Assembly (NCBI GenBank): GCA_037129895.1
Contig: JBAXUB010000001.1
Span: 18,947-82,946, forward strand
Length of the DNA: 64,000 nucleotides
Direction: 5' to 3'
Origin: Candidatus Tayloriibacteriota bacterium
GTDB taxonomy: Bacteria > Patescibacteriota > Minisyncoccia > Phycocordibacterales > PALSA-1337
How positions within the stretch are numbered: position 1 is the stretch's first letter; the number at the start of each line of letters is the position of its first letter. Below, one piece after another: positions 104-46,130 of the stretch. The notes beneath the pieces are model-generated. The model did no database searches. It was not told the DNA's origin and worked only from the letters and a program-made list of their open reading frames with translations. The position numbers and the translations under genes were made by a program.

Positions 104-607
104 CTATTTTACCTCCTTGACCATATCATCAATACTCTTGTCCATATCTTCTATAGATATTGGTGCAACGTCTTTCTTTTCATCTATTACTACCCCTGGT
201 TCCATAACACGCTTTGGCATGATTGCGGCAGCTATCTGTGATGCCCTCTTGCCCAAATATGTGTTTTCCTTGGTTGTGGAGAGAAGTATCATGCGCAATA
301 CTGTAGGAACCAACTCAACTGACTTTTTGACTGATTCTACAACGCTTGAACTCAACTCGAACTTGATCCAACCAAAGTATGCCTTGTCATATTTCTCATA
401 TGAACCAGATACTGTCTTCACCCTCATCGTATAAGCGAGTTGCTCTAGATGTGGTAACTCGTCAGCTATAACTGACGCGCCAGCTTTAGTAATGATGCTC
501 TTTACTTTCTCTGCTTCTAGAGAAACATTCTCCTCAGCAACAGAACCCGCGACCAAGTATCCTATCTCGTAGACCGATATGCGGTCATCAATATTTGTGT
601 CTTGCAT
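104..607 (-). CDS. rpsF: 30S ribosomal protein S6, with an acidic C-terminal tail. The ORF-track N-terminal extension to 982 is probably not translated; an internal Met (MQDTNIDD...) is the likely start.
   Basis: YEIGYLV...LAYTMRVKT...YFGWIKFEL aligns with the S6 pattern YEIVFMV...LAYPINK...YVLMNVE. The upstream part of the ORF is low-complexity. Confidence 0.65.
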   Translation of the reverse strand: MQDTNIDDRISVYEIGYLVAGSVAEENVSLEAEKVKSIITKAGASVIADELPHLEQLAYTMRVKTVSGSYEKYDKAYFGWIKFELSSSVVESVKKSVELVPTVLRMILLSTTKENTYLGKRASQIAAAIMPKRVMEPGVVIDEKKDVAPISIEDMDKSIDDMVKEVK

Positions 608-1045
608 ATTTTGTTTGCACTCAGTGACCCTTAAACTGGGATCCTCTATGTTTTCGACGTCGAGGAACTGACTGCGATTACTTATAATGTAATACGAGAC
701 TACCATAATATTGGCCTCTATGCAAGAGTATGACTCATTCTGGGTGCTTTTCATGCAGGTTGAAAAACACCTGTAAAAGAGGTGCCTAGACGATAGCATT
801 CCATAGATAAAATCCTGATAAAATCTGTATAAAGAAATGATAAAAAAGTAATAAAGAAAAGTATAAAGAATTAGAAATATATTTATGCCAGGGACCACAA
901 CATCTTTATTACAACTCTGCGGATGAAGGAAACTAAATATTTTCTTACTAATATGCGCACCACCAGACAGTCCTCGAGTCACAAAAAGGGTTTCTGTGGT
1001 TTTGGAACATTGGTCCTAGACCGATGGTTTTAAAACGCCAATAAC

Positions 1046-5818: not shown

Positions 5819-7151
5819 TCCCTATGCCGATTTTTTGCTTCAAATATTTGAGCAGATCAGCTTCGGTAACTCTCTCCTGTTTACCTGAATCACGATCTCG
5901 AACAGTTACACCTGTACCTTTCTCTATAGTCTCAAAGTCAACAGTGACGCAGAGTGGCGTACCGATCTCATCTTGACGACGATAACGTTTTCCTATATTG
6001 CCATTATCATCATAGTCAGTCATCGGTATCTCCTTCTGAATCGTCTTGAATATCTCCTCTGCTTTCTTTATGAGCTCCGGTTTATTCCTTAGCAACGGAA
6101 ATACGGCCACCTTATAAGGTGCTACCCTCGGATGAAGCTTGAGATATGTTCTCTTGTCACCACCTAAGTCATCTTCAGTATATGCATCACAGAGTATAGC
6201 GAGTACTGTCCTATCTAGTCCGAATGATGGCTCTATACAATGTGGTATGAATCTCTCTTTGGTTTCTTCATCATAATAGGAAAGATCAACTTTACTGAAA
6301 TCAGAATGCTGTTTGAGATCGAAATCTCCACGATAGGCCAATCCATATAATTCCTTTTTACCAAAAGGAAAATCAAACTCAAAATCGATAGTTCGTTTCG
6401 AATAGTGTGCACGGTCAGCCTGTGCCACTTCCAACTCGTGGACTTTGGAAGCGTCTAGCCCGACATCGGCCGTGAATGCGAGAACTTCTTTCCTGAAATA
6501 TTCAAATGATGTCTCCCACAGTTTTGGATTGACGAAATACTCTATTTCCATCTGTTCAAACTCGCGAGATCGGAAAAGGAAATCCCTAGGCGCTATCTCA
6601 TTACGGAAAGCCTTTCCTATCTGTGCCATACCAAACGGTAGTCTCGGATGTTGAGTGTCCAATACATTCTTGAAATTCACGAACATTCCCTGTGCAGTCT
6701 CTGGTCGTAGATATGATACCGACGAAGCGTCTTGGATAGCTCCAACATGAGTCTCGAACATCATATTGAACTTCCTCTCTTCACCCAAGTCTCCACCACA
6801 ATCTGGACACTTCTTTTTGTTAGTAGCATCACCTTCTATCTGATCGGCACGAAATCTATGCTTGCATTTCTTGCACTCGACGAGTGGATCAGCGAAGCCT
6901 GATGCGTGACCACTAGCTTGCCAGACTCTCTGATTCATGAGGATGGCTGCATCAACTCGGAACATGTTTCTCTTCCCCACAACGAAGCGGCTGTACCAAG
7001 CATCTTTGATGTTAGATTTCAACGCTTCTCCGAAAGGACCATAGTCCCATGTACCGGCTAAACCGCCATATATCTCTGAACCTTGGAATATAAAACCACG
7101 TCGCTTACAAAGTGCGACTACCGCATCCATTTTGTCTTCTTGTTTATTCAT
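5811..7151 (-). CDS. glyQS: Glycyl-tRNA synthetase, class II alpha2 type
   Basis: N-terminus ...RRGFIFQGSEIYGGLAGTWDYGPFG... is characteristic of dimeric GlyRS. Confidence 0.9.
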   Translation of the reverse strand: MNKQEDKMDAVVALCKRRGFIFQGSEIYGGLAGTWDYGPFGEALKSNIKDAWYSRFVVGKRNMFRVDAAILMNQRVWQASGHASGFADPLVECKKCKHRFRADQIEGDATNKKKCPDCGGDLGEERKFNMMFETHVGAIQDASSVSYLRPETAQGMFVNFKNVLDTQHPRLPFGMAQIGKAFRNEIAPRDFLFRSREFEQMEIEYFVNPKLWETSFEYFRKEVLAFTADVGLDASKVHELEVAQADRAHYSKRTIDFEFDFPFGKKELYGLAYRGDFDLKQHSDFSKVDLSYYDEETKERFIPHCIEPSFGLDRTVLAILCDAYTEDDLGGDKRTYLKLHPRVAPYKVAVFPLLRNKPELIKKAEEIFKTIQKEIPMTDYDDNGNIGKRYRRQDEIGTPLCVTVDFETIEKGTGVTVRDRDSGKQERVTEADLLKYLKQKIGIGNE

Positions 7152-7196
7152 ATCGCTATTCTACACTTAAAAAGGTAACAGTGACAAGTATAAATA

Positions 7197-9131
7197 CTAC
7201 TTCACCACCACACCATCTCCATCATTATATATTGGGTCTGTACTGAATCTCGTTGAGAGCTCCTCTTGTGTACTAGTCAATTGTGTTCCTGTAAACGCAT
7301 CTGCCGCAGTTAGAGATGTCTGATTGACCAGAGTTACTGGCTGACCGATCTGGTTCACCGCTGGAGTAACTGACAATTGGAATGATACTTCTCTCCTTCT
7401 CAATGAATTCAATGTATAAGTACCAACATTTCCAACTACCCAAGTGACGCGACCACTATTCGGGTCATAAGTAATATTTTCATTACTTGGATTGAAGACG
7501 TTTAACCATTTGACTGAAGGCGGTAAAGTGGTTGTAACTTGTGCATTTCCAACAGCGTTTGAAGTATTGTCTACATTCCATATTATTGTGAAAGTTGAAG
7601 GCTGTTCTACTTTCGGAGGTATTGGTCCAGTATTCACGAATGGTCCAACACTACGCACAACTCTACCAGACAGGCTCACGCTAGAAGAGACTCTGATATT
7701 ACGTGCAACCACTGAATGCAAATTACTAGAAACACTAGTCTCCTGTGTACGATCTCCAGAAACACTCGTCGATAGAGTCACCAATGGATTGGTTACAGCC
7801 CGAACCGAGGAACCGAAATCTCTTGGAGTGAGACGGAAAGATACAGTACCTTTAGACCCCGCTCCTACACTAGCGAATTCTGGATTTGTTTGTTGATTCC
7901 AGACGATCTCATCTGAACTGGAGTTAAAATATCCTCTATCAGGCGACACCTTGGTCTTGTCATATGCAGAACCAGATAGTTTCAATGTAATGATTAGATT
8001 TGATACAGATACTGGCAGATTGTTGACCCAGCTCACCTCTACCTGATCTTCTTGTCCGAACTGTCCGACATAATCACTATTTGAACTGTTACCATTTATT
8101 GACATAACCAACGATATGAAAGGCTTTTGCACGGTCATATCCTGCTCCGCTGCAACATATTGAGTCCCTATGAGCGTAGCATCTGATACACTCGTTGCTC
8201 CTGCCGTGAAGCGAAAGACTTTCGTATCACTATTTTCTCCCGTCAGTTTGCCGTGAATCGTTACTACCCTCTCCGCACCAGCTGGTATATCACCGATTTT
8301 CCATATCGTATTGTTTGTCTGTGGTTTCAAATCAGCAGATATGAAGGTGAAGCCAAATGGATACTGAGATTTCAATAATATATTTTTCAATGTTTCTTGC
8401 GAGTTTGATTTTACTTTTACGGTCATATCGAATTCTTGACCAGATGACACTTCTTTATATGAATCAACCGTTAAGCTTATCGGTGATGAGTTGATGAGGA
8501 CATCATAAGTCTTGCTCTTGGTAAAAAGTGAGTTTGATCCTTTGACTTTATACGTAACATTGACGGCGATCGTCTTCTGCATATTTTCTTCACCGAATAT
8601 TATGGCTCTAACTATTTTCTCCGACGACTTGCCAGCCGCCAAGTCACCAACCAATTCATGATAGGTCTTCATCTCCTTCGTCGAATCATTGGGGTCTGTT
8701 GTGCCTGCTGGGAAATCAACCGCCAAGTCAGCCGTCTGTAAGTCAACATTATTTCGATTCGTCACAATGACGCCGAAAGATACTGGCGTACCGCCAGGTA
8801 TAGAAACTGGACCATTGATACTGATATCTATATTGTCTGCCGAAATGAGATTGGCACCATTTAGAAACAAATATGCTCCGAGACCTATAGCGATGACACA
8901 GAATATTACTGAACCGATCAATATCTTCTTCAAATATGACATAGAGTGATCTTCGAAATTTTGGTTAAGTGTCGTCTCCACAGGCTTCTCTACCGGCTCT
9001 TCCCATGAAGTCTTCATCTCTGACGGCTTGTCATTGAAGCGCAGCTTGCGCCTAGTTCGCACGTCAGGAGCACCTCTCGAATACAGAGATTTCTTCAATT
9101 CTTCAATGTAGCTTTTATCTTCTGACTCCAC
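7197..9131 (-). CDS. Large membrane-anchored surface protein: N-in, one TM, Ser/Thr/Asn/Val-rich beta-like ectodomain. Function unknown.
   Basis: Single TM ILIGSVIFCVIAIGLGAYLFL after a charged N-terminus. The remainder is a low-complexity beta-rich extracellular region. Confidence 0.5.
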   Translation of the reverse strand: MESEDKSYIEELKKSLYSRGAPDVRTRRKLRFNDKPSEMKTSWEEPVEKPVETTLNQNFEDHSMSYLKKILIGSVIFCVIAIGLGAYLFLNGANLISADNIDISINGPVSIPGGTPVSFGVIVTNRNNVDLQTADLAVDFPAGTTDPNDSTKEMKTYHELVGDLAAGKSSEKIVRAIIFGEENMQKTIAVNVTYKVKGSNSLFTKSKTYDVLINSSPISLTVDSYKEVSSGQEFDMTVKVKSNSQETLKNILLKSQYPFGFTFISADLKPQTNNTIWKIGDIPAGAERVVTIHGKLTGENSDTKVFRFTAGATSVSDATLIGTQYVAAEQDMTVQKPFISLVMSINGNSSNSDYVGQFGQEDQVEVSWVNNLPVSVSNLIITLKLSGSAYDKTKVSPDRGYFNSSSDEIVWNQQTNPEFASVGAGSKGTVSFRLTPRDFGSSVRAVTNPLVTLSTSVSGDRTQETSVSSNLHSVVARNIRVSSSVSLSGRVVRSVGPFVNTGPIPPKVEQPSTFTIIWNVDNTSNAVGNAQVTTTLPPSVKWLNVFNPSNENITYDPNSGRVTWVVGNVGTYTLNSLRRREVSFQLSVTPAVNQIGQPVTLVNQTSLTAADAFTGTQLTSTQEELSTRFSTDPIYNDGDGVVVK

Positions 9132-9820: not shown

Positions 9821-12800
9821 TTATCTAATATCCAACTTCACATTCAATTCACCGACAGCCTGACTCTCCCCAGTCACACTCGAGAACGATATACCTTTGA
9901 CTGAAGTAGCTGCAGAAATCGCCTTCTCATTCTTTTCAATAAATGTCTTGCCGGCTACATCCGTATCAACTATGAGAGATACCTTATCATTCACGGTAAA
10001 GCCCCTATCCTTGCGAAGATCCTGAATAACGCGTATGAGTTCACGAACTGTTCCCTCTTCTTTCAGTGCTGGAGTTATAGCGATATCTAACTCGACTTCT
10101 TGAGTGAGACCCGCCAAAAACATAACTTCCTTTACATTGACTTCATCCATGATGAGTTCACAGAACTCTGGACTGAGTCCCGCCGACTTCTCTGTATTAT
10201 TGACCGTCAATTTTGCCAAAGGTTGTCTAACGTTGATCTTGGCTTTCATACGGGCTTCGAGACCTTTCGAAGCAATGTCTCTAACTATTTGCATGTTCTC
10301 GATCAATTTCGCATCGGATTTTCCAACTTCTGGCCAAGACGTGAGATGTACGCTATTAGTAGAGCCGAACAATTCCTGATGTAGATACTCAGCATAGAGT
10401 GGAGTAAACGGCGCCATCAATCTCGCTAGAGTTGAGAGCACGTATCTAGTAGTAGATAGAGCCTGTATCTTATCTACACCATCATTCTTGAACCGATCTC
10501 TAGATCTACGCAGATACCATTGAGAGAGTTCAGCTATAAAATCACGGATCGCCCTGGTCGGTTCAAAGAATTTGTAATTGTCTAGATTTTTCGTTGTTGT
10601 TTCTATCAACTGACTTAGTTTGGCGATGATCCATCGATCCAAGATATTGGAAGACAACGATCTGTCCACTGCCCTCTTTTCTAATGTAGCATCACCCAAC
10701 TCCTCGACACTTCTATTCTCATATAGTTTATAGAATGCTGTAACATTGGATATGAGATTGAATACTTTCTTCACAACCTCATCAACAGTTTTCTCATCAA
10801 AATTCTTTGAATCTCCTGGCTGATTGACGGAATACATCCAAAAACGTAGTGCGTCTGCTCCATATTTATCCATCATATCCCAAGGACTAACGACGTTGCC
10901 GATGGACTTACTCATCTTCTTGCCTTTGGCATCCAGGATATGTCCCAAACAGATTACATTCTTGTACGCCTTACCTTTACCCATGATCGCTCCGATAGCA
11001 TGCAATGTATAGAACCATCCACGTGTCTGATCGATCGCCTCCGAGATGAAATCCGCCGGATAAGCAATGTCCCGACCGATCTCTTCATTCCCGCCCAACT
11101 CATGCTCCTGCGAAAACGGCATCGATCCGGAATCGAACCAGACGTCCAAAACTTCCCTAGCACGACTCATCGTCCCGCCACACTGGCAATCCAACTTTAC
11201 ATCATCTATGAATGGTTTATGTAGATCAAGCTCATAATCCGCATTGTGAGGCAAGATAGAAAAATCCACTGGTCGCACTTCTGCGTTTGCGATGAAATCT
11301 TCCTGCTTTCGGTAGATTCTAGCACTATCGATATCATGACCTGCTGCAGCTGCAAACAATGTATAGGCCGGAGTCTCATGAGTGACGATCAATATCGTTT
11401 TGCCCTCATATTTACTTTCCATATCATATAGGAATTCACCCATACGTCTCTTTATATCCATATAGTCTTCCCCTCCTTCTGGTTTCCATAACCATCGGTC
11501 ATTCTCGCCGCATGCACGAGCCAATTCATCCACACCCTTCCCATCGAAAATTCCCGCACCATATTCTCTGATCCGATCATCTACAATAACTCTCGACGAA
11601 TCGAGGCCGACTACATCACGTACTATCTCAGCAGTTTCTCTAGTTCGTAGGAGTGGAGATGTAAAGATAAGATCGATTTTTGATGATACCAACTTCGCAG
11701 CAGAATCACTCACGTCTTTCTCGCCTTTCTCGGTCAAGTTGATGATGGAAGTAGCCGCAGTATCTAGAATATTCCTAACATTGTTCTCTGCTTCGCCATG
11801 TCTCATGACCAAGTATTTGTTCTTCGATCTCTTGGCCAATTCAGAAACAACACCAACCACTCTAGTAGATTTACACTTCTCACATGTCCATACAGGCAAC
11901 GGCGTCCCCCAATAACGCTCTCTCGATATTGCCCAATCCTTGATCTCACGTAGCCACTCACCAAAACGACCCTCCTTGATATGTTCGGGTTCCCAATGTA
12001 TCCCCTCATTTTCCTTAACTAATGTGTCGCGCAAACTAGACATCCGCAAATACCATGAATCGCGAGCGAAATATATGAGAGGTGTATGACAACGCCAACA
12101 GAATGGATATGTGTGTTCATACTTTTCCTTGGCAAACAAAAGTTTTCGTCCAGCCAAATCCTTTATGATAGTGACATCCGTGCCAGGATCTTTGACGAAA
12201 AGACCAGCCAATGATCCGGCCTCTTTCTTGAAAGTACCATCATCATTCACCAAGTGGAATTTCGGAAGCCCTACCTTCGTCCCCAATTCAAAATCATCCT
12301 GACCATACATAACTGCTATATGAACGATTCCAGTTCCGTCAGACGTTGTAACGAACGGAGCGGCGTAGACTCTATATGCATTCGCTAGCTTCTCCTTTTC
12401 GGTACCTTGCACATTGTCCTTGAGAAAGGGATACAAAGGGTTATAGGCGAGACCTACCAATGTTCCACCTTTCACAGTTTCCAACACGCTCGCATTTTCA
12501 AAATGTGACTTCAATGCTTCGAACCTCTCTTTCGCCAAAATCACCACTTCCCCGCTTGCGACTTTTACTTTTACATATTCGATATCGGCATTAATCGCTA
12601 AACCAACATTCCCTGGCAACGTCCACGGAGTAGTCGTCCATGCCAACAAGTATGTATTAGCTTCACCAACGACTTCAAATTTTACATAAACTGATAGATC
12701 TTTGACCGTCTCATATCCTTGCGCCAATTCGTGTGAAGAAAGACCCGTCCCACAACGTGGGCACCACGGAACTACTTTGTAGTCTTTATAAAGTAGTTTC

Positions 12801-13345
12801 TTGTTTTCAGCAGTTTTGATTATACTCCAAACCGACTCTATATATTGCGACTTGTAAGTTATATATGGATTCTCTAGGTCCACCCAATAACCCATACGAT
12901 CAGTGAAGTCCTCCCATTCATGTACGTACTTCCAGACACTCGCTTTGCACTTCTCATTGAATAGGCCTATGCCGTATGACTCTATTTCTTTTTTGGACTT
13001 CAGCCCGAGTTCCTTTTCTACTTGTAACTCAACTGGCAGACCATGTGTATCCCATCCACCTTTTCGACGTACATGATAACCCTGCATCGTCTTGTATCTA
13101 GGAATTGCATCCTTGAAAGCACGCGCCTCTAGATGATGGATACCTGGTCTACCGTTAGCTGTCGGAGGTCCTTCATAAAATACGAACTCGCCCTTTGGAG
13201 ACTCCTTGCCCAATGACTTTTCGAAAACGCTATTCTCTTTCCAATACTTCAAAATCGCCTCTTCACGCAATGCATGGGGACTTTTCACTGAATTTGTTGA
13301 ATACTGGCTATTCTCTCGATCAGTTTTGTTGTTTGGAAGAGGCAT
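9821..13345 (-). CDS. ileS: Isoleucyl-tRNA synthetase with an inserted histidine-phosphatase (PGAM-like) domain
   Basis: PGIHHL (HIGH) and KMSKSIGN are present, with an editing domain. Residues about 508-700 (YLVMRHGEAENN...LIVTHETP...) form a nested RHG phosphatase domain. Confidence 0.9.
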   Translation of the reverse strand: MPLPNNKTDRENSQYSTNSVKSPHALREEAILKYWKENSVFEKSLGKESPKGEFVFYEGPPTANGRPGIHHLEARAFKDAIPRYKTMQGYHVRRKGGWDTHGLPVELQVEKELGLKSKKEIESYGIGLFNEKCKASVWKYVHEWEDFTDRMGYWVDLENPYITYKSQYIESVWSIIKTAENKKLLYKDYKVVPWCPRCGTGLSSHELAQGYETVKDLSVYVKFEVVGEANTYLLAWTTTPWTLPGNVGLAINADIEYVKVKVASGEVVILAKERFEALKSHFENASVLETVKGGTLVGLAYNPLYPFLKDNVQGTEKEKLANAYRVYAAPFVTTSDGTGIVHIAVMYGQDDFELGTKVGLPKFHLVNDDGTFKKEAGSLAGLFVKDPGTDVTIIKDLAGRKLLFAKEKYEHTYPFCWRCHTPLIYFARDSWYLRMSSLRDTLVKENEGIHWEPEHIKEGRFGEWLREIKDWAISRERYWGTPLPVWTCEKCKSTRVVGVVSELAKRSKNKYLVMRHGEAENNVRNILDTAATSIINLTEKGEKDVSDSAAKLVSSKIDLIFTSPLLRTRETAEIVRDVVGLDSSRVIVDDRIREYGAGIFDGKGVDELARACGENDRWLWKPEGGEDYMDIKRRMGEFLYDMESKYEGKTILIVTHETPAYTLFAAAAGHDIDSARIYRKQEDFIANAEVRPVDFSILPHNADYELDLHKPFIDDVKLDCQCGGTMSRAREVLDVWFDSGSMPFSQEHELGGNEEIGRDIAYPADFISEAIDQTRGWFYTLHAIGAIMGKGKAYKNVICLGHILDAKGKKMSKSIGNVVSPWDMMDKYGADALRFWMYSVNQPGDSKNFDEKTVDEVVKKVFNLISNVTAFYKLYENRSVEELGDATLEKRAVDRSLSSNILDRWIIAKLSQLIETTTKNLDNYKFFEPTRAIRDFIAELSQWYLRRSRDRFKNDGVDKIQALSTTRYVLSTLARLMAPFTPLYAEYLHQELFGSTNSVHLTSWPEVGKSDAKLIENMQIVRDIASKGLEARMKAKINVRQPLAKLTVNNTEKSAGLSPEFCELIMDEVNVKEVMFLAGLTQEVELDIAITPALKEEGTVRELIRVIQDLRKDRGFTVNDKVSLIVDTDVAGKTFIEKNEKAISAATSVKGISFSSVTGESQAVGELNVKLDIR

Positions 13346-17212: not shown

Positions 17213-17275
17213 CTATTTGCAGACCTGAGGAGAAACCGGCTTTTTCAAAACAGCATCGATCTTTCGAGCAATCTT
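17213..17275 (-). repeat. Authentic glyA 3' end; direct-repeat partner of 16035..16097
   Basis: See the paired repeat feature. Confidence 0.8.
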
Positions 17276-18430
17276 TACAAAATCTTTCTCTTTCCTACCA
17301 CGAGTAGTCTCTGCGGCGGTGCCAAGTCGTATGCCTGACGGGTCAGCTGGTGGACGTGTGTCGAAAGGAATGGCGTTCTTGTTGACGATGATACCTGCTT
17401 GTTCGAGTCTAGTACTAGCCTCTTTACCAGTAACTCCGCCAGCACCATTTTCATTCACATGACCGTCATGCCAAGTATCTACCAAAACTAGATGACTATC
17501 CGTGCCACCAGAGATGACCCTCCAACCAAACTTTCTCAGGTGTTCCGCCAAAACTGCAGCATTCTTCACAACTTGTGCAGCGTATTTCTTGAATTTTGGA
17601 CTAGCTGCTTCTTTGAGTGCCACTGCAACAGCAGCAATCTGATTTATATGTGGTCCACCCTGTAGTCCAGGAAAAACTGCCTTGTCTATCTTCTTGTCCA
17701 ATTCCCTATCATCGCGTCTCACGAATATGAGAGCTGCGCGTGGGCCACGGAGAGTTTTGTGTGTAGTCGTCGTAACAATATCAGCATATGGAAAAGGTGC
17801 AGGATATGCACCACCAGCTACCAATCCAGCGATATGAGACATATCAACCATGAGTAAAGCCTGAGCCGCGTCCGCAACTTCCCTCATCTTGACCCAATCA
17901 ATAATACGAGGATAGGCCGTATAGCCAGCAACTATGATCGCCGGCTTTTCTGCCACAGCCTTTTCTCGAAGCTGATCGTAATTCAATACTTCAGTTGTCT
18001 TATCTACACCATATGGCACCTGAGTCCAAAACTTTCCTGTAGCAGAAACTTTGTGCCCATGCGTAAGGTGTCCTCCTTGATCGAGTGACATCCCCATGAT
18101 CTTACCGCCTTGTGGGACTAACGCGGTATAGACTGCCAGATTCGCTGGTGAACCCGAGAGAGCTTGCACGTTTACATGCCACTTATCATGATCGAGCCCG
18201 AATAATTCTAACGCCCTTTCCATACACAGACTCTCTATCTTATCTACTATCTCATTACCCCCATAATATCTCTTTCCCGGATAACCCTCCGCATATTTAT
18301 TGGTAAGTTCTGAGCCAAGTGCCTCTAACACATCATTCGAAACATAATTCTCCGAAGCTATCAGGTTGACGACTTTTTTCTGTCTATTCTTTTCTGACAA
18401 TATTAATTTTTTTATTTGTTTATCTTTCAT
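17213..18430 (-). CDS. glyA: Serine hydroxymethyltransferase (start at internal Met MKDKQIKK)
   Basis: LIASENYVS...YAEGYPGKRYYGG signature; PLP-lysine region present. Confidence 0.9.
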   Translation of the reverse strand: MKDKQIKKLILSEKNRQKKVVNLIASENYVSNDVLEALGSELTNKYAEGYPGKRYYGGNEIVDKIESLCMERALELFGLDHDKWHVNVQALSGSPANLAVYTALVPQGGKIMGMSLDQGGHLTHGHKVSATGKFWTQVPYGVDKTTEVLNYDQLREKAVAEKPAIIVAGYTAYPRIIDWVKMREVADAAQALLMVDMSHIAGLVAGGAYPAPFPYADIVTTTTHKTLRGPRAALIFVRRDDRELDKKIDKAVFPGLQGGPHINQIAAVAVALKEAASPKFKKYAAQVVKNAAVLAEHLRKFGWRVISGGTDSHLVLVDTWHDGHVNENGAGGVTGKEASTRLEQAGIIVNKNAIPFDTRPPADPSGIRLGTAAETTRGRKEKDFVKIARKIDAVLKKPVSPQVCK

Positions 18431-18751
18431 ATGTATATCGTAACATAACATACCGCCTACAAAAAATGGTCCGCTACACCCAGTGTGTAACGGACCACCA
18501 ACCACCCATACAAAGGGAAGAAATCAACGACACACGACGCGACTTTAGTGACAAAATAGAATTTGTCCAATCCTTAGCCACTCATACGGTGATATGTCGT
18601 TTTTGTTTGACCATTGAAGGTCTGCGAGCCAAATGGCCCAGTACGGGACGCGAACTCATAGTTCGAATCTCTGATGAAAAGATTACTCCTCGTCCGCAAT
18701 TAATGCAAGCTAGTTATACACACGTTATCCACAGGCTATTCCGTGACTCGT

Positions 18752-19402
18752 CTACTTGAGCAGTTTGCGCATCTCCTCCAAGAAATCACTTTTCACTTCC
18801 TCGAAAGGCCTATTGGCGTCTATCGTAACATGCGGCACTTTCTTCAGAAATTTCAAATACCCCTTCCTCACCTTTTCGTGGAATATGATCTTTCTATTAT
18901 CGAAATGATCATACTTGGTAGTATTTCTGTTCGACTCATTGCGAGATCTCGCACGACGCAGACCAACCAGAGGATCCACATCCACAAACACATAGAGATC
19001 TGGGACATGTACCAACTTGTCACGAAGTAACCAGAAGATTTCCTCGAGATCGCCATTTGTTTGAGCTGCGACTTGATATGCAAAAGAAGAACCATCAAAT
19101 CTATCGGCCACCACCGACATTCCCGATTTCAATGACGGCTCGATCACATTCACCACATTGTCGAAGCGGGCGGCAAACATAAGACACAGTGTCGTCTCAG
19201 CCGGCGCAGTCTTCGCTAGAGGATTCTTGAGTGCAGCATTCCTGATGATCTCCGCATAAGGCGATCCTCCAGGTTCACGAGTTATGAGAGCAACACCCGG
19301 CATCTCCTTCGCGAGAGCGGCCATGAGTGAAGATTTACCGGAACCTTCTCCACCTTCAACAGCGATGAACATCGGTCTCTTTTTATTTCTCAATTTTTTC
19401 AT
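18752..19402 (-). CDS. tmk: Thymidylate (dTMP) kinase family dNMP kinase
   Basis: P-loop FIAVEGGEGSGKSS and TREPGGS motifs. Confidence 0.85.
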   Translation of the reverse strand: MKKLRNKKRPMFIAVEGGEGSGKSSLMAALAKEMPGVALITREPGGSPYAEIIRNAALKNPLAKTAPAETTLCLMFAARFDNVVNVIEPSLKSGMSVVADRFDGSSFAYQVAAQTNGDLEEIFWLLRDKLVHVPDLYVFVDVDPLVGLRRARSRNESNRNTTKYDHFDNRKIIFHEKVRKGYLKFLKKVPHVTIDANRPFEEVKSDFLEEMRKLLK

Positions 19403-19447: not shown

Positions 19448-19930
19448 CTACCTCTTCCTTGTGAATAACTCAGTCGCTCCTTCGACTAGGAAGACTCTAC
19501 TTATCCCCGCTTTGATCATTCGATCCCAGCAAGGCTTGCAACACCACCAATGACCATACAGGTATAGATCGGCTCCCCTGACTTTACCGCCACCATGTCT
19601 CGATATAGCATCCTTGACCGCCCTTGATTCTGCATGTTGTCGACAAGAAGCACAACCTGGACAAAGCCAATACTTCTGTCCTGATGGTATTTTCAACAAT
19701 CTTCTCACACAAAACCTTTCCTTATGAAAAGTTAGCAGTTTACTGTTCTTGATTGCTGACTGATTGGCACCTTTTCCTAGAATAACACCATCCCTGACGA
19801 CGACAGCACCCGTCGGGTGTTGTGTATCCGTTGACTTTTCCTCGCATAGCTTCATCGCCTCCTTCATATACAGATTGTTCGATGATACATATTCAACACT
19901 CCTGCCTTCTGGCATATATGGATAATTCAT
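19448..19930 (-). CDS. dCMP deaminase family protein (zinc-dependent CDA fold)
   Basis: HAE zinc motif (CRQHAESRAV) and PCxxC (CCKPCWDRM), plus an additional CPGC zinc site as in dCMP deaminases. Confidence 0.75.
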   Translation of the reverse strand: MNYPYMPEGRSVEYVSSNNLYMKEAMKLCEEKSTDTQHPTGAVVVRDGVILGKGANQSAIKNSKLLTFHKERFCVRRLLKIPSGQKYWLCPGCASCRQHAESRAVKDAISRHGGGKVRGADLYLYGHWWCCKPCWDRMIKAGISRVFLVEGATELFTRKR

Positions 19931-20006
19931 TTTGATAAATCCGCATTAAGAACCATTAACTAATAATTGTAAACTGTTTACTATTTCTTTAATTATATAT
20001 AATAGA

Positions 20007-20849
20007 ATGATTATGACCAAGTTTGACCAAATATACCAAGACATTGTGAAAAACATTATGAAGAAAGGCATGGTCGAGTTCAGTGAGAGAACTGGACACG
20101 AAACGAAAGTTCTAGTCGGTGTACATTTCCAAGTCGACATAGAGAAAGACGGCTTCCCCATCCTCACACTCCGCAAGTCGCCGATAAAGATGTTCGTCGC
20201 GGAACAAGTATGGTTTTTGTCTGGATCTAGAAAGCCAGAGGACTTCCTCCGAAATTATACGCACATATGGGATGACTTCACCAATCCAGGCGATGTCGTC
20301 ACTGTCGCATACGGATATAGATGGCGTAAACATTTTGGCAGAGACCAGATAGGACTATTAGTCGATCTATTAAAAAAAGAACCAAGCTCTAGACAAGCTG
20401 TCGTAGTAACATGGGATCCTGCACAGGATGGATTATCTATCGTAAAAAAGAAAAATGTTCCTTGTCCATATACATTCACCGTTAATATCGTTGCTGGCAG
20501 ATTGCACCTGCACAATATAGTCAGATCCAACGATGTAATGCTCGGATTCTCAGCGGATGTCCCAGGATTCGCACTACTCCAATGTATTCTCGCTCAAAAG
20601 CTAGGGGTGAGACCTGGTATATACTCTCACTCGATTTCCAATGCTCATATATATGATACACATTATGACGGTGCGAAAGAGTTGATCAAGAGGAAAAACA
20701 AACACAAGAAGATAACCCTGACTTTACCTAAGGACGCCTTTGACAGAGCAGAAAAGAAAGATCCGACACTCGTCGACCAGATAGTGGAAAACCTCGGAAA
20801 ACAATATAAACCGATGGAACCGATAAAGGGCTTGAAATTAATATTATAA
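20007..20849 (+). CDS. Thymidylate-synthase-fold (ThyA family) enzyme with Asp at the Asn177-equivalent. Possibly a dCMP methyltransferase or hydroxymethylase rather than canonical TS.
   Basis: Gap-free by-eye alignment to E. coli ThyA: ERTGHET, GFPILTLRKS, VWFLSGS, the VPCP nucleophile and VRSNDVMLGFSADVPGFALL. Confidence 0.8.
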   Translation: MIMTKFDQIYQDIVKNIMKKGMVEFSERTGHETKVLVGVHFQVDIEKDGFPILTLRKSPIKMFVAEQVWFLSGSRKPEDFLRNYTHIWDDFTNPGDVVTVAYGYRWRKHFGRDQIGLLVDLLKKEPSSRQAVVVTWDPAQDGLSIVKKKNVPCPYTFTVNIVAGRLHLHNIVRSNDVMLGFSADVPGFALLQCILAQKLGVRPGIYSHSISNAHIYDTHYDGAKELIKRKNKHKKITLTLPKDAFDRAEKKDPTLVDQIVENLGKQYKPMEPIKGLKLIL

Positions 20850-20861
20850 CCAACACACCCA

Positions 20862-21491
20862 ATGTCTATCATCACAAAAACTGAAATAGTAGAACTGATA
20901 AAGAATGGTGTACTTTCCATACGACCAGCTCTGGATAAGTTCCAATTACAAGAACACTCTATAGACCTACGTCTCGGCTATACTTTCATGATACCAAAGA
21001 TGTGGCACATGACTCCGAAAGGCCGTGAATCATTGGACATCACCCATTTCGATAAGCGTAACCATGAATACTTCGAAGTTGTCGAACTCGAACAAGGACA
21101 GTATTTCGAATTATTACCGCAGGAATACATCCTCGTCTCAACCTTAGAGACGATAAAGATGCCTAACAACTTGATGGGCGTTCTCTACCCGAGAGCTTCG
21201 ACCAATCGAAAAGGGCTTTCATTGGACCTTTCAGGAATAATAGATGCTGGCTATGACGGACAGTTAGTATTGCCTATCAGGAACAATACCCGCTCTCAAG
21301 CTATCAGACTATTCCCTGGCGAACGCCTATGCCAAGTTGTTTTCCAGGAGTTGAAAAGTTCTGTTACACCGAAACCAGGCAAATATCATCAGCGAGACAT
21401 CATCGAGGGTGTTGTCACTGAAAATAGAGAGGAGGCTGATCTCATATCCAGTGGCGATATTAAAGTGTTAAAGGAAAAGTTTAAGGTGTAA
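20862..21491 (+). CDS. dCTP deaminase/dUTPase-superfamily protein. Motif III is dUTPase-like and lacks the Dcd catalytic Glu.
   Basis: Dcd-like N-terminus. GIIDAGYDGQLVLPIRN...FPGERLCQVVF closely matches dUTPase motif III. Confidence 0.7.
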   Translation: MSIITKTEIVELIKNGVLSIRPALDKFQLQEHSIDLRLGYTFMIPKMWHMTPKGRESLDITHFDKRNHEYFEVVELEQGQYFELLPQEYILVSTLETIKMPNNLMGVLYPRASTNRKGLSLDLSGIIDAGYDGQLVLPIRNNTRSQAIRLFPGERLCQVVFQELKSSVTPKPGKYHQRDIIEGVVTENREEADLISSGDIKVLKEKFKV

Positions 21492-22276: not shown

Positions 22277-22783
22277 TCAAAATGTAGAGAGTTTCCCTCT
22301 ATTGGACTCTATCGAACGTGACAGACTACTAACACATTCGACAAGCTCGTCCAACTTTCTGAAATTGAAATGCCGTACCAAGTCCGGCCTGTCCAGATGA
22401 GCAAACTTGATCGACTCTAGAAACGAGATCGTCCGATTGGCTTGTGCATGGTCACCTAGAGTGAGTCCAACCAGGAGAGGCTTGCGAGCTTTCGCACGTG
22501 CCTCGACTTCTTGCACACACCGAGGGGTTGAGCACACTGACAACCAGATCATGAGATCACAAGTCTTCACAGGATCACTGATCCGAGGAACTTCGACAGG
22601 TAGATCATCCGTGATCTTCAAGACCGGCTCCACCGCATATACGTGGAATCCGGGCAGCTGTCTCAGTTTTTCCAAGAAATACAATACGTCCGTGAACAAA
22701 AAACCATCCGGAATACCCGGGGCCAACGCCAAGGGAAAAGTTACATATGTTTTCATAATCAGCTCTGAAACAAAGCCTACCAT
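22277..22783 (-). CDS. Hypothetical protein of higher GC than its neighbours
   Basis: 168-aa ORF. No motif recognised. Local GC is near 50% against about 40% around it. Confidence 0.5.
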   Translation of the reverse strand: MVGFVSELIMKTYVTFPLALAPGIPDGFLFTDVLYFLEKLRQLPGFHVYAVEPVLKITDDLPVEVPRISDPVKTCDLMIWLSVCSTPRCVQEVEARAKARKPLLVGLTLGDHAQANRTISFLESIKFAHLDRPDLVRHFNFRKLDELVECVSSLSRSIESNRGKLSTF

Positions 22784-22819
22784 TTACAATCCATTTCGCA
22801 AGTCACTGCCCTGCTGCAT

Positions 22820-22865
22820 AGGTCAGACCTATACAAACATGTAGAGGTCAGACCTCTACATGTTT
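22820..22865. promoter_or_regulatory. Two copies of the palindrome AGGTCAGACCT. The second lies in a 31-bp perfect palindrome that overlaps the rplK stop.
   Basis: AGGTCAGACCT at 22820 and 22845. aaacatgtagaggtc-a-gacctctacatgttt spans 22835..22865. Confidence 0.45.
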
Positions 22866-25074: not shown

Positions 25075-25908
25075 CTACCTTCTCGTATCACACAAATCAA
25101 TCAAGTTTTCGAATAACGCGAGAACTGTCATCGCCCCTACCCCACCAGGAACTGGTGAAATCGCCCTGACTACTCCTGAAACTGCAGCAAAATCAACATC
25201 CCCAACCAATCTCTCAGTGCCTATACGAGAAATGCCAACATCTATAACGACCTGATCAGGATTGACGTGCTCAACTCTTATAAGTCCAGGCTTTCCAGTC
25301 GCCACTATCAATATATCTGCTTCCTTTGTACCAAAAACCAGATCGGCTGTCTGACTATGACAAACCGTCACTTTCGCACCAGCGGTCTCACACATTGCGG
25401 CAATAGGTTTTCCAACTAGATCAGACCTACCAACAACTGTTACATTCTTTCCTTTGAGTAAAAATCCGTAACTATCCAATAATTCCTTTATACCCCTAGC
25501 TGTTGCTGGCATTATACCCTCGCCGTGTGACCATTTGGCAACGTTCGCTGACGTGAGAGCATCAACGTCCTTATCTGGATCTATAGCCTCGATCACTGCA
25601 AATTTATCAATGCTTGAAGGCAGTGGAAGCTGAACGATGATGCCATTTATACTGTCGTCGTTATTCAATGATTCTATATGATCTAGGAGTTCTCGTCGTG
25701 ATATACCTTCACTAAACTGTTTGTGGAGAACATCTACACCGATTTTCTCTGCAAACAACTTTTTTGCACGGATAAATGATGTCGAATCAGCCCTTTCACC
25801 AACTTGAATGATGGCCAATTTTGGCATAAAGGAAAGTTTCGCGACCCCATTTTTCAATAGAGGAAGCCTCGTTTCCCTAGTTTTTCGGCCATCAATAATG
25901 ATAGTCAT
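25075..25908 (-). CDS. folD: Bifunctional methylene-THF dehydrogenase / methenyl-THF cyclohydrolase
   Basis: MTIIIDGRK... start; LAIIQVGERADS and PGGVGAMTV motifs. Confidence 0.9.
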   Translation of the reverse strand: MTIIIDGRKTRETRLPLLKNGVAKLSFMPKLAIIQVGERADSTSFIRAKKLFAEKIGVDVLHKQFSEGISRRELLDHIESLNNDDSINGIIVQLPLPSSIDKFAVIEAIDPDKDVDALTSANVAKWSHGEGIMPATARGIKELLDSYGFLLKGKNVTVVGRSDLVGKPIAAMCETAGAKVTVCHSQTADLVFGTKEADILIVATGKPGLIRVEHVNPDQVVIDVGISRIGTERLVGDVDFAAVSGVVRAISPVPGGVGAMTVLALFENLIDLCDTRR

Positions 25909-26008
25909 GATATGAAGAGCATACCATAGAAAATTACCAAACAGGAAATCGTAGGAACTACTCGTACACATAACTAAATCAATATTGATATATTCAACTC
26001 ATACATCT

Positions 26009-44725: not shown

Positions 44726-45748
44726 ATGCTTCAGCAGTCTAATGATAAAAGAGTTAAATTTCAACCGGGTGAACAAGCAAGGTTTCTCGTGCGTGTAATC
44801 AATAAACTGTGCATTACGCAGACAACTCTTGCAACCATGGCGGGCATAAGTGTTCGACGTATTTCCGATTGGAAAGCAGAAAAAAGTACGATGCCATTAT
44901 CAGTTGTGAATTTACTATCAAAAAAATCTGGACTCAACTTACCGCACGGTATTCACTACATAGATCGATATGCCCATACGAGAGCGGCCGGAAAAAAAGG
45001 TGGAAAGGCAACTATAGAGAAATACCACGGTTTCCCCGACCCAAATAGGACACGCCTTTCTGCATGGAAAAAATGGTGGGAAGAATCTGGACGAGAAAAA
45101 ACTATCACCGCATCAACAAAGCCTGCGAGAATCCCGAATGATTCTTCCAACCTGGCGGAATTTACAGGAATAATGATGGGAGATGGCGGAATTTCAAAAT
45201 ACCAAATAAGTGTGACTCTAAACAAAATTGATGACTATGACTATTCATTGTTTGTACGTAACCTTATGAATAACCTTTTCCAAGTGGTTCCTTCGTTAGT
45301 CAAAAAACTAGATGAAAAAGCACTCATTTTGAATATATCACGACTTCAATTGGTCAGATTTTGTAATGATCACCTCAATCTACCAACTGGACACAAGATT
45401 CGTCATGGATTATATGTTCCTTCGTGGATAATGAAGAAAACCGTCTATAAAAGATCATTTCTCCGCGGACTTTTTGATACTGATGGTTGTGTAGTTATAG
45501 AAAAACATAAGGTCGACAAAGTGGTGTACTCTTATGCTCGCCTAAACTTCACGTCATATTGTCCAATATTATCGAAGTCCACATTCCAAATATTGACCGA
45601 GCTTGGATATACACCGAGGGTGCGTAGAAAAGAAAGATCAATACAACTTGAAAATTATGACGAAATATGTGATTATTTCAGAGTTGTAGGAACGCACAAT
45701 CCTAAACACACGGAACGTCTGAGGAAAGTCGGAATATTCCGTTCGTAA
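44726..45748 (+). CDS. LAGLIDADG homing endonuclease with an N-terminal HTH, directly 5' of tRNA-Ser
   Basis: Motif 1 LAEFTGIMMGDGGI; motif 2 FLRGLFDTDGCVVI; XRE-like HTH near the N-terminus. Confidence 0.85.
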   Translation: MLQQSNDKRVKFQPGEQARFLVRVINKLCITQTTLATMAGISVRRISDWKAEKSTMPLSVVNLLSKKSGLNLPHGIHYIDRYAHTRAAGKKGGKATIEKYHGFPDPNRTRLSAWKKWWEESGREKTITASTKPARIPNDSSNLAEFTGIMMGDGGISKYQISVTLNKIDDYDYSLFVRNLMNNLFQVVPSLVKKLDEKALILNISRLQLVRFCNDHLNLPTGHKIRHGLYVPSWIMKKTVYKRSFLRGLFDTDGCVVIEKHKVDKVVYSYARLNFTSYCPILSKSTFQILTELGYTPRVRRKERSIQLENYDEICDYFRVVGTHNPKHTERLRKVGIFRS

Positions 45749-45757
45749 GAATCCAAA

Positions 45758-45844
45758 GGAGGAGTGGCAGAGTGGTCGATTGCACCGCTCTTGAAAAGCG
45801 GAACCTGGGAAACTGGGTCGTGAGTTCGAATCTCACCTCCTCCG
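45758..45844 (+). tRNA. tRNA-Ser (TGA), class II
   Basis: GGAGGAGTGGCAGAGTGGTCGATTGCA-CCGCTCTTGAAAAGCGG-long variable arm-GTGAGTTCGAATCTCAC-CTCCTCCG. Confidence 0.9.
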
Positions 45845-46130
45845 CAAATGATCTAAAGAAATCTCTAATAGTCCTTATAACAGGACATCGATTTTTTGAC
45901 CATTACTGAAACCAGAAATGCACAATTCCCGCCATATTTAGGATGAATACGAAAAACGTGAGCATGCAGAACATGATCAGGCCGCCGAAGGTGAATACTT
46001 CTAATACGAATTCTTTCATATATTAATAAAAGCATACAATCAATATTTTAACTACTCTGAGGACTCCCTACTATTAACTTATAAACATCGTCACGGTACA
46101 TTCCCCTGCGAGGAATGCTATAATTCTCAC

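Follow-up and report, generated by a model that had tools for sequence, protein, structure and literature searches.

We analyzed a 64,000-nucleotide stretch of a Candidatus Tayloriibacteriota genome (contig JBAXUB010000001.1 of assembly GCA_037129895.1, positions 18,947 to 82,946), here called the window, with positions counted from its first letter. At its center of interest is a gene encoding an enzyme of the ThyA fold, in which the Asn that recognizes dUMP in thymidylate synthases (TS) is replaced by Asp, and which we predict to be a deoxycytidylate C5-methyltransferase. This gene, referred to below as the synthase gene, lies in a conserved island of nucleotide and folate genes, with the order serine hydroxymethyltransferase (SHMT, minus strand), Tmk (minus), a CDA-fold deaminase (minus), the divergently oriented synthase (plus), a Dcd-fold protein (plus), a dihydrofolate reductase (DHFR)-like protein (plus), L11 and NusG (Table 1). 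Our analysis of the synthase, of its neighbors and of its nearest relatives leads us to favor, with modest confidence, a housekeeping role for this enzyme, in which it would methylate dCMP and so feed dTMP synthesis by deamination of 5-methyl-dCMP.

Table 1. Positions of the synthase gene, its specificity codon and the associated genes within the window (ORF, open reading frame; THF, tetrahydrofolate)
Feature	Position	Strand	Basis
Serine hydroxymethyltransferase (SHMT), regenerates 5,10-methylene-THF	17213..18505	-	E 9e-161
dTMP kinase (Tmk)	18752..19402	-	TIGR00041, 128.7 bits vs cutoff 83.25
CDA-fold zinc deaminase, 160 aa, predicted 5-methyl-dCMP and/or dCMP deaminase	19448..19930	-	PF00383, E 5.6e-15; motifs
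Divergent intergenic region deaminase/synthase, 76 bp	19931..20006	.	ORF boundaries
ThyA-fold Asp-type enzyme, predicted deoxycytidylate C5-methyltransferase	20007..20849	+	ATG start, 280 aa; PF00303, alignments, AlphaFold2 model
Asp184 codon (GAT), specificity position	20556..20558	+	aligns with E. coli N177 / L. casei N229
Dcd/dUTPase-fold protein, 209 aa, begins 12 nt after synthase stop	20862..21491	+	TIGR02274, alignment to 4xjc
Dihydrofolate reductase-like (RibD_C / DHFR_1), 166 aa	21665..22165	+	profile matches
FolD (methylene-THF dehydrogenase/cyclohydrolase), one-carbon enzyme, loosely associated, 3 kb beyond L11/NusG	25075..25971	-	profile match

Active site and family of the synthase

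The ORF reported in an earlier, sequence-only reading of this DNA is present as described, all the motifs quoted there occur in its translation, and its product matches the PF00303 profile over residues 9-256 (E 2.4e-53, 181 bits against a cutoff of 24.3). The database record of the identical protein, located on a 102-kb contig of a metagenome-assembled genome (MAG), reads "thymidylate synthase [Candidatus Taylorbacteria bacterium]". An AlphaFold2 model built on 45 homologues (predicted local distance difference test score, pLDDT, 83) superposes over its full length on ThyA structures when compared using Foldseek (TM-score 0.72-0.76, E about 1e-19), which bears out the fold proposed from the sequence, and the matches include 1njc, the N229D mutant of the L. 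casei enzyme. The catalytic Cys and residues R21, E58, W80, Y94, R126, R166, S167, D169, H207 and Y209 (E. coli numbering) are all kept, and the C-terminal tail, "PIKGLKLIL", is hydrophobic and TS-like ("GIKAPVAI" in E. coli ThyA).

The active site was placed by phmmer/HMMER alignments of the synthase to 124 thymidylate synthases in the PDB, using an E. coli ThyA reference sequence identical to PDB 1aob. The phmmer alignment sets "GFSADVPGF" of our protein on "GVPFNIASY", and thereby Asp184 on N177, i.e., on the Asn that hydrogen-bonds O4/N3 of dUMP in canonical TS, and the HMMER alignment shows Asp184 to coincide with the mutant Asp of 1njc. Cys153-Pro154 aligns with C146-H147, with Cys153 as the nucleophile. 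Both substitutions had been noticed from the letters alone, and the alignments agree with them; the accompanying statement that the alignment runs without gaps through the active site is correct from C146 to N177, but a 4-residue indel occurs after the R126 motif, before the Cys is reached. Examination of the remainder of the pocket demonstrated that further residues of the canonical enzyme are also replaced, with F91 at W83, Q130 at R127, V172 at Q165 and N212 at D205.

These changes are not peculiar to one protein. An exhaustive HMMER search over 1.84 billion cluster representatives gave a best set of 149 usable matches, 124 of them Asp-type and 20 Asn-type at position 177, with the first Asn-type sequence appearing at rank 74, and the two types differ at each of the other five positions compared (Table 2). 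Among the 120 closest database clusters (70-87% identity), 118 contain the Asp motif, the other two having been missed by the pattern search, and most have Pro after the catalytic Cys. Since the Asp is correlated with other pocket changes throughout a large natural clade, we consider it to be part of a remodeled pyrimidine pocket and not an isolated substitution. Positions 177 and 147 were also found to be the best separators of modified-cytosine from unmodified viral contigs (PMC8670742), and the N177D/N229D change turns TS into a dCMP methylase (Hardy & Nalivaika 1992; Liu & Santi 1992, as cited in PMC8670742).

Table 2. Residues at specificity-linked positions (E. coli numbering) in the best 149 cluster representatives, the synthase under study and two phage enzymes
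Position	Asp-type	Asn-type	Synthase	Xp12	T4 gp42
83	F 114/124	W 18/20	F	F	V
127	Q/H 100/124	R 20/20	Q	R	R
147	P 97/124	H 20/20	P	P	T
165	mostly hydrophobic	Q 14/20	V	L	M
177	D	N	D	D	D
205	H/N 99/124	D 16/20	N	H	S

Alternatively, the protein may be a conventional thymidylate synthase, specific for dUMP despite the Asp at position 177, its neighbors forming the textbook pathway and the Dcd-fold protein serving as a dUTPase. The name carried in databases agrees with this, as does the equivalog TIGR03284, whose cutoff is passed (122.1 against 108.35), although the protein falls far below the cutoffs of the seven other NCBIfam thyA equivalogs, e.g., 143 against 327. The same is true of the structure, since the full-length superposition on ThyA and the retention of the other catalytic residues from R21 to Y209 would suit a canonical enzyme, whereas the specificity-linked positions all differ, with H147, Q165 and W83 absent and the whole Asp-clade signature in their place. 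In addition, the natural Asp-type enzymes that have been characterized and that we compared (Xp12 and T4 gp42) act on cytosine nucleotides, the engineered Asp mutants cited above became dCMP methylases, and none of the strong viral relatives described below has retained Asn. The neighboring gene set fits the textbook pathway in full, with the deaminase forming dUMP from dCMP, ThyA converting this to dTMP, and DHFR and SHMT regenerating the folate. Taking these points together, we regard a canonical, dUMP-specific enzyme as unlikely.

Conservation and neighbors of the synthase gene in Paceibacteria

Using one genome per GTDB species, we identified 80 related loci, about 1.1 Mb in total, from Taylor-, Adler-, Colwell-, Nomura-, Kaiser-, Vogel- and Lipton-bacteria and other Paceibacteria. 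All 80 species have Asp at position 177, and 77 have Pro at position 147. The deaminase gene adjoins the synthase gene in 79 of the 80, the one exception being interrupted by a contig end, and 77 species have the Dcd-fold gene. We also observed, no more than 4 kb from the synthase gene, SHMT in 62 species, L11 in 58, DHFR in 57, NusG in 50 and Tmk in 37. Identity of the synthase between species (66-93%) is similar to that of L11, which argues for an essential housekeeping role, and the module apparently belongs to the housekeeping set conserved across Paceibacteria/Parcubacteria. Many of the loci (among L004-L082) are titled "uncultured Candidatus Saccharibacteria bacterium", yet their genes are 70-86% identical to those of Taylorbacteria/Parcubacteria, so this label looks generic.

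The window also contains seven tRNAs, several aminoacyl-tRNA synthetases, Pol I and a sigma factor, in addition to L11 and NusG. A prophage or viral island was ruled out by the tRNAs, the synthetases and Pol I, and by the synteny with L11/NusG seen in most of the 80 species. The sequence-only reading had proposed a search of the rest of the genome for a second thyA or thyX, and this was followed up in the window and the 80 loci: tblastn using E. coli ThyA found no second thyA in them, and a single signature-motif pattern found no thyX. We infer that these genomes may lack another thymidylate synthase.

Two neighbors of the synthase gene bear directly on its role. Across 62 homologues of the deaminase the zinc motifs H98-A-E100 and C130/C133 do not vary, and neither do H68, C73, C89 and C92, which could form a second zinc site. 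The protein reads "GANQ" where the allosteric motif of DCTD, G[YW]N[AG] (PMC12088426), would be expected, and its score against the ComEB model TIGR02571 is 21.6, with a cutoff of 219.

In the Dcd-fold protein, Pro138 stands at the position of the catalytic Glu of E. coli Dcd (E138), with "VLPIRN" aligned to "TLELFN" of PDB 4xjc, and the same Pro is present in 76 of 76 species. A dCTP deaminase making dUTP is therefore ruled out for this neighbor. The protein nevertheless scores 116 bits against the dCTP-deaminase equivalog TIGR02274 (cutoff 92.8) and 40 bits against the Dut model, so that automatic annotation would mislabel it as a dCTP deaminase despite the missing Glu, and proteins of this kind are probably widely mis-annotated in this way. 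We predict that it is probably a non-deaminating dNTP pyrophosphatase, acting on dCTP to give dCMP and/or on dUTP to give dUMP. Non-deaminating Dcd-fold dUTPases are known in archaea, which would suit the dUTPase role assigned to this protein if the synthase were canonical.

Several other features of the window were noted. A promoter-like site on the minus strand (20019..19992) overlaps the divergent intergenic region and extends into the synthase ORF by 13 bp; our promoter and terminator scan gave consensus-level matches only, and it was not used as evidence. A 168-aa ORF (22277-22783, minus strand) lies between the DHFR-like gene and L11 and overlaps another ORF (22407-22844, plus strand); neither Pfam nor a tblastn search of the 80 loci, in which DHFR and L11 are often almost adjacent, gave a match to it, and the region appears to be an insert of about 0.7 kb that is specific to this genome. 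Elsewhere, an isoleucyl-tRNA-synthetase-like protein of 1174 aa (9821-13345, minus strand) carries a His_Phos_1 domain at residues 512-676, inside the class I synthetase body, and a 340-aa ORF with a LAGLIDADG-like domain (44726-45748, plus strand) lies immediately upstream of a tRNA-Ser (45758-45845). A 292-aa ORF (104-982, minus strand) has a ribosomal S6 domain only at residues 138-233, i.e., it has either a long N-terminal extension or a listed GTG start that is too far upstream.

Phage relatives and the proposed route to dTMP

The best phage matches of the synthase are enzymes of Pamexvirus/Bradleyvirinae phages. Pairwise BLAST gave 39.5% identity and 184 bits to the enzyme of PaMx74, 36% and 170 bits to that of Mallos, and 37% and 166 bits to that of Xp12; the values are lower for E. 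coli ThyA (26.6%, 100 bits) and for T4 gp42 (21%, 35 bits). The clusters of these phages hold a pyrophosphohydrolase, a TS, a dCMP deaminase and DHFR. A study that deals with viruses only (bioRxiv 10.1101/2024.12.05.627091) showed by experiment that the Xp12 enzyme makes 5-methyl-dCMP, found that it and 5 of 7 further enzymes with D177 make 5-methyldeoxycytidine in vivo, and reported that PaMx74 and Xp12 replace cytosine with 5-methylcytosine (5mC) in full. The same study described a TS-linked deaminase, mSCD-B5, which is 5mC-selective, prefers 5-methyl-dCTP and yields dTTP; as it turns 5mC nucleotides into thymidine nucleotides, a separate thymidylate synthase is not needed.

All 22 strong relatives of the synthase on viral contigs have Asp at position 177, and some database proteins join functions that are encoded separately in our window. 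For example, P0139, from another lineage, is a natural fusion of a CDA deaminase and a D177 synthase, encoded at 6001-7302 of a 58-kb contig (L086) on which a Pro-variant Dcd-fold gene adjoins the fusion and a ribonucleotide reductase gene lies about 5.8 kb away, and P0176 is a MazG-like PRA-PH domain fused to a D177 synthase. A contig classed as viral, L087 (IMGVR_UViG_3300025858_000007), encodes a synthase 55% identical to ours, with a deaminase of the type found in our window directly upstream on the same strand, and may be a phage of bacteria of the candidate phyla radiation (CPR) or a misclassified CPR fragment. P0159 is an HNH endonuclease fused to an Asp-type synthase. A database protein of 2736 aa, P0124, contains 26 separate thymidylate-synthase-like stretches; it could represent a repeat array, or an artefact of assembly or of gene calling.

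On balance, we lean toward the view that the synthase is a dCMP C5-methyltransferase with a housekeeping role, its product 5-methyl-dCMP being deaminated to supply dTMP. In the route that we propose, the Dcd-fold pyrophosphatase would hydrolyze dCTP to dCMP, and would alternatively or additionally clear dUTP; the Asp-type synthase would convert dCMP and 5,10-methylene-THF to 5-methyl-dCMP and dihydrofolate (DHF), i.e., the chemistry of EC 2.1.1.54 as in phage Xp12; the CDA-fold deaminase would convert 5-methyl-dCMP to dTMP; Tmk would phosphorylate the dTMP; and DHFR and SHMT, with FolD nearby, would recycle the folate. The net effect would be to methylate and then deaminate, in place of the textbook order of deamination followed by methylation. 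That dTMP might arise through the adjacent deaminase had been suggested from the sequence alone, and this suggestion gains support from the phage precedent, from the adjacency in 79 of 80 species, from the P0139 fusion and from the Tmk/DHFR/SHMT context.

The steps of this route are predicted with differing strength. The residues of the pocket and the nearest characterized homologues point to dCMP as the substrate of the synthase. Methyl transfer is the predicted reaction because of the nearest characterized homologue, the conserved DHFR and the TS-like C-terminal tail, the last two of which fit a DHF-producing methyl transfer. The substrates proposed for the deaminase and the pyrophosphatase are likewise predictions from sequence. 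The dTMP kinase clustered with the synthase gene, together with the finding that classical dCMP deaminases accept 5-methyl-dCMP (PMC12088426), suggests, with less support than the methyl transfer, that deamination takes place at the monophosphate level. The score of Tmk above the dTMP-kinase equivalog cutoff fits dTMP as the product of the module.

Several findings weigh against this route. The call for dCMP rests on residues and on homology at only 37-40% identity, the TIGR03284 cutoff is passed, and the gene set (dCMP deaminase, Dut-like protein, ThyA, DHFR, SHMT and Tmk) is also exactly what the canonical pathway needs. In a crude neighbor-joining tree the CPR clade is not placed beside the Xp12 clade within the Asp-type assemblage, and the tree is not fine enough to show which way transfer went between the CPR clade and the phage enzymes. 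The model of the deaminase (pLDDT 88) has generic CDA-fold matches only (RibG, TadA and dCMP deaminases, TM-score 0.44-0.54), so its fold does not discriminate between substrates. We also considered the CPR deaminase as a homologue of the Xp12, PaMx74 and Mallos deaminases, and rejected this, as there is no relationship beyond the superfamily and no significant BLAST similarity.

The sequence-only reading had left methyl and hydroxymethyl transfer side by side, and of these the Asp-clade signature and the closeness to the Xp12 and PaMx74 enzymes support methyl transfer. A dCMP hydroxymethylase like T4 gp42, making 5-hydroxymethyl-dCMP, would share the Asp at the specificity position, and the fold alone cannot separate the two reactions. 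The BLAST score to T4 gp42 is nevertheless a small fraction of those to the Xp12-type enzymes, T147, V83 and K21 of T4 gp42 are replaced by P147, F83 and R21 in the synthase, and the synthase keeps the C-terminal tail of TS. In addition, DHFR is conserved in the operon, though a hydroxymethylase does not oxidize folate, and no glucosyltransferase or gene related to hydroxymethylcytosine was seen nearby. We therefore hold a hydroxymethylase to be very improbable.

A further possibility is that the module is used as in Xp12, with dCTP removed, 5-methyl-dCMP converted to 5-methyl-dCTP, 5mC in place of most or all cytosine in the genome, and thymidine supplied by deaminating part of the 5mC pool. 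The functional set of pyrophosphatase, Asp-type TS, deaminase and DHFR parallels the cluster of Xp12 and PaMx74, phages in which the replacement of cytosine is complete (bioRxiv 10.1101/2024.12.05.627091), and the Glu-less Dcd-fold protein, which by its TIGR02274 and Dut scores descends from cytosine-binding dCTP deaminases, could be a dCTPase. The dTMP kinase of the cluster, bona fide by its score, argues mildly in the other direction, as it suggests that dTMP is formed at the monophosphate level, and we saw no kinase dedicated to 5-methyl-dCMP in the vicinity of the cluster. In most CPR genomes 5mC would escape notice, since these derive from short-read metagenomes; in three of the related loci, which we take to come from nanopore-based MAGs, the module genes match over their full length and without frameshift, a weak point against the modification. 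The literature that we searched contains no report of hypermethylated CPR DNA. To our knowledge, no cellular organism has wholesale 5mC in place of cytosine, and a use of this kind would be without cellular precedent. We judge it distinctly unlikely for the present module, and are slightly more doubtful still of its general form, in which Paceibacteria/Parcubacteria, a class that is large and widespread, would methylate dCMP before replication, so that most or all of their cytosine is 5mC and their thymidine is drawn from the 5mC-nucleotide pool, as has been proposed for Xp12. Were this true, Paceibacteria would provide the first case of cells that use a non-canonical base wholesale.

In all cells, thymidylate synthesis is taken to begin with dUMP, by way of ThyA or ThyX. 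If the route of methylation followed by deamination is correct, a major bacterial radiation makes dTMP from dCMP in a third cellular solution that largely bypasses dUMP/dUTP, and the reconstruction of CPR nucleotide metabolism changes, the synthase gene now being annotated as plain thyA and its neighbor as a dCTP deaminase. It would also connect a DNA-modification toolkit of phages with housekeeping metabolism in cells, prompting the question of which of the two is older. In addition, a large and varied collection of natural dCMP methylases, and perhaps of 5mC-selective deaminases as well, would become available for methylome sequencing chemistry. In the literature searched we found no description of a dCMP methylase of this sort in CPR or other cellular organisms, the gene being treated as an ordinary thyA. 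As the pathway has been described to date in phages only, the present variant, cellular and apparently of housekeeping function, appears to be new.

Comparison with known enzymes and clusters

Compared with canonical ThyA (E. coli and L. casei; EC 2.1.1.45), the CPR enzyme has the full-length fold (TM-score 0.72-0.76), the nucleophile Cys, the phosphate-binding Arg residues, E58, Y94, D169, H207, Y209, the TS-like C-terminus and the genomic link to DHFR and SHMT. It differs in the changes N177D, H147P, Q165V, W83F, R127Q and D205N, in an identity of 26.6% and in falling below 7 of 8 NCBIfam equivalog cutoffs. The engineered dCMP methylases L. casei N229D (PDB 1njc) and E. coli N177D have Asp at the same position; these are single mutants of dUMP enzymes, whereas the CPR enzyme carries further co-varying changes that are conserved across a natural clade. 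The dCMP hydroxymethylase T4 gp42 (EC 2.1.2.8) likewise combines the TS fold with Asp at the specificity position, but is only 21% identical (35 bits), has T147, V83 and K21 where the CPR enzyme has P147, F83 and R21, has a shorter C-terminus, and carries out a chemistry that gives THF and not DHF.

The closest likeness is to the enzymes of Xp12, PaMx74 and Mallos, the best-scoring of the characterized homologues (166-184 bits), which have the ThyA fold and F83, P147 and D177 and share the blocks AYGYRWRxHFGRDQ, WDPA[EQ]DGL and KNVPCP with the CPR enzyme. In both settings the synthase gene is accompanied by genes for a deaminase, for DHFR and for a nucleotide pyrophosphatase. The differences lie partly in the synthase, with an identity of only 37-40% and with Gln in the CPR enzyme and Arg in Xp12 at position 127, and partly in its partners. 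The CPR pyrophosphatase has the Dcd fold with Glu replaced by Pro, whereas that of the phages has the MazG/HAD fold, and the former is most simply regarded as a functional analogue, and not an orthologue, of the latter; the CPR deaminase, likewise an analogue of its phage counterpart and not an orthologue, belongs to another CDA subfamily, with no significant BLAST similarity; and the CPR cluster adds Tmk and SHMT. Finally, the CPR gene lies in a cellular chromosomal island beside L11/NusG that is kept in 80 species.

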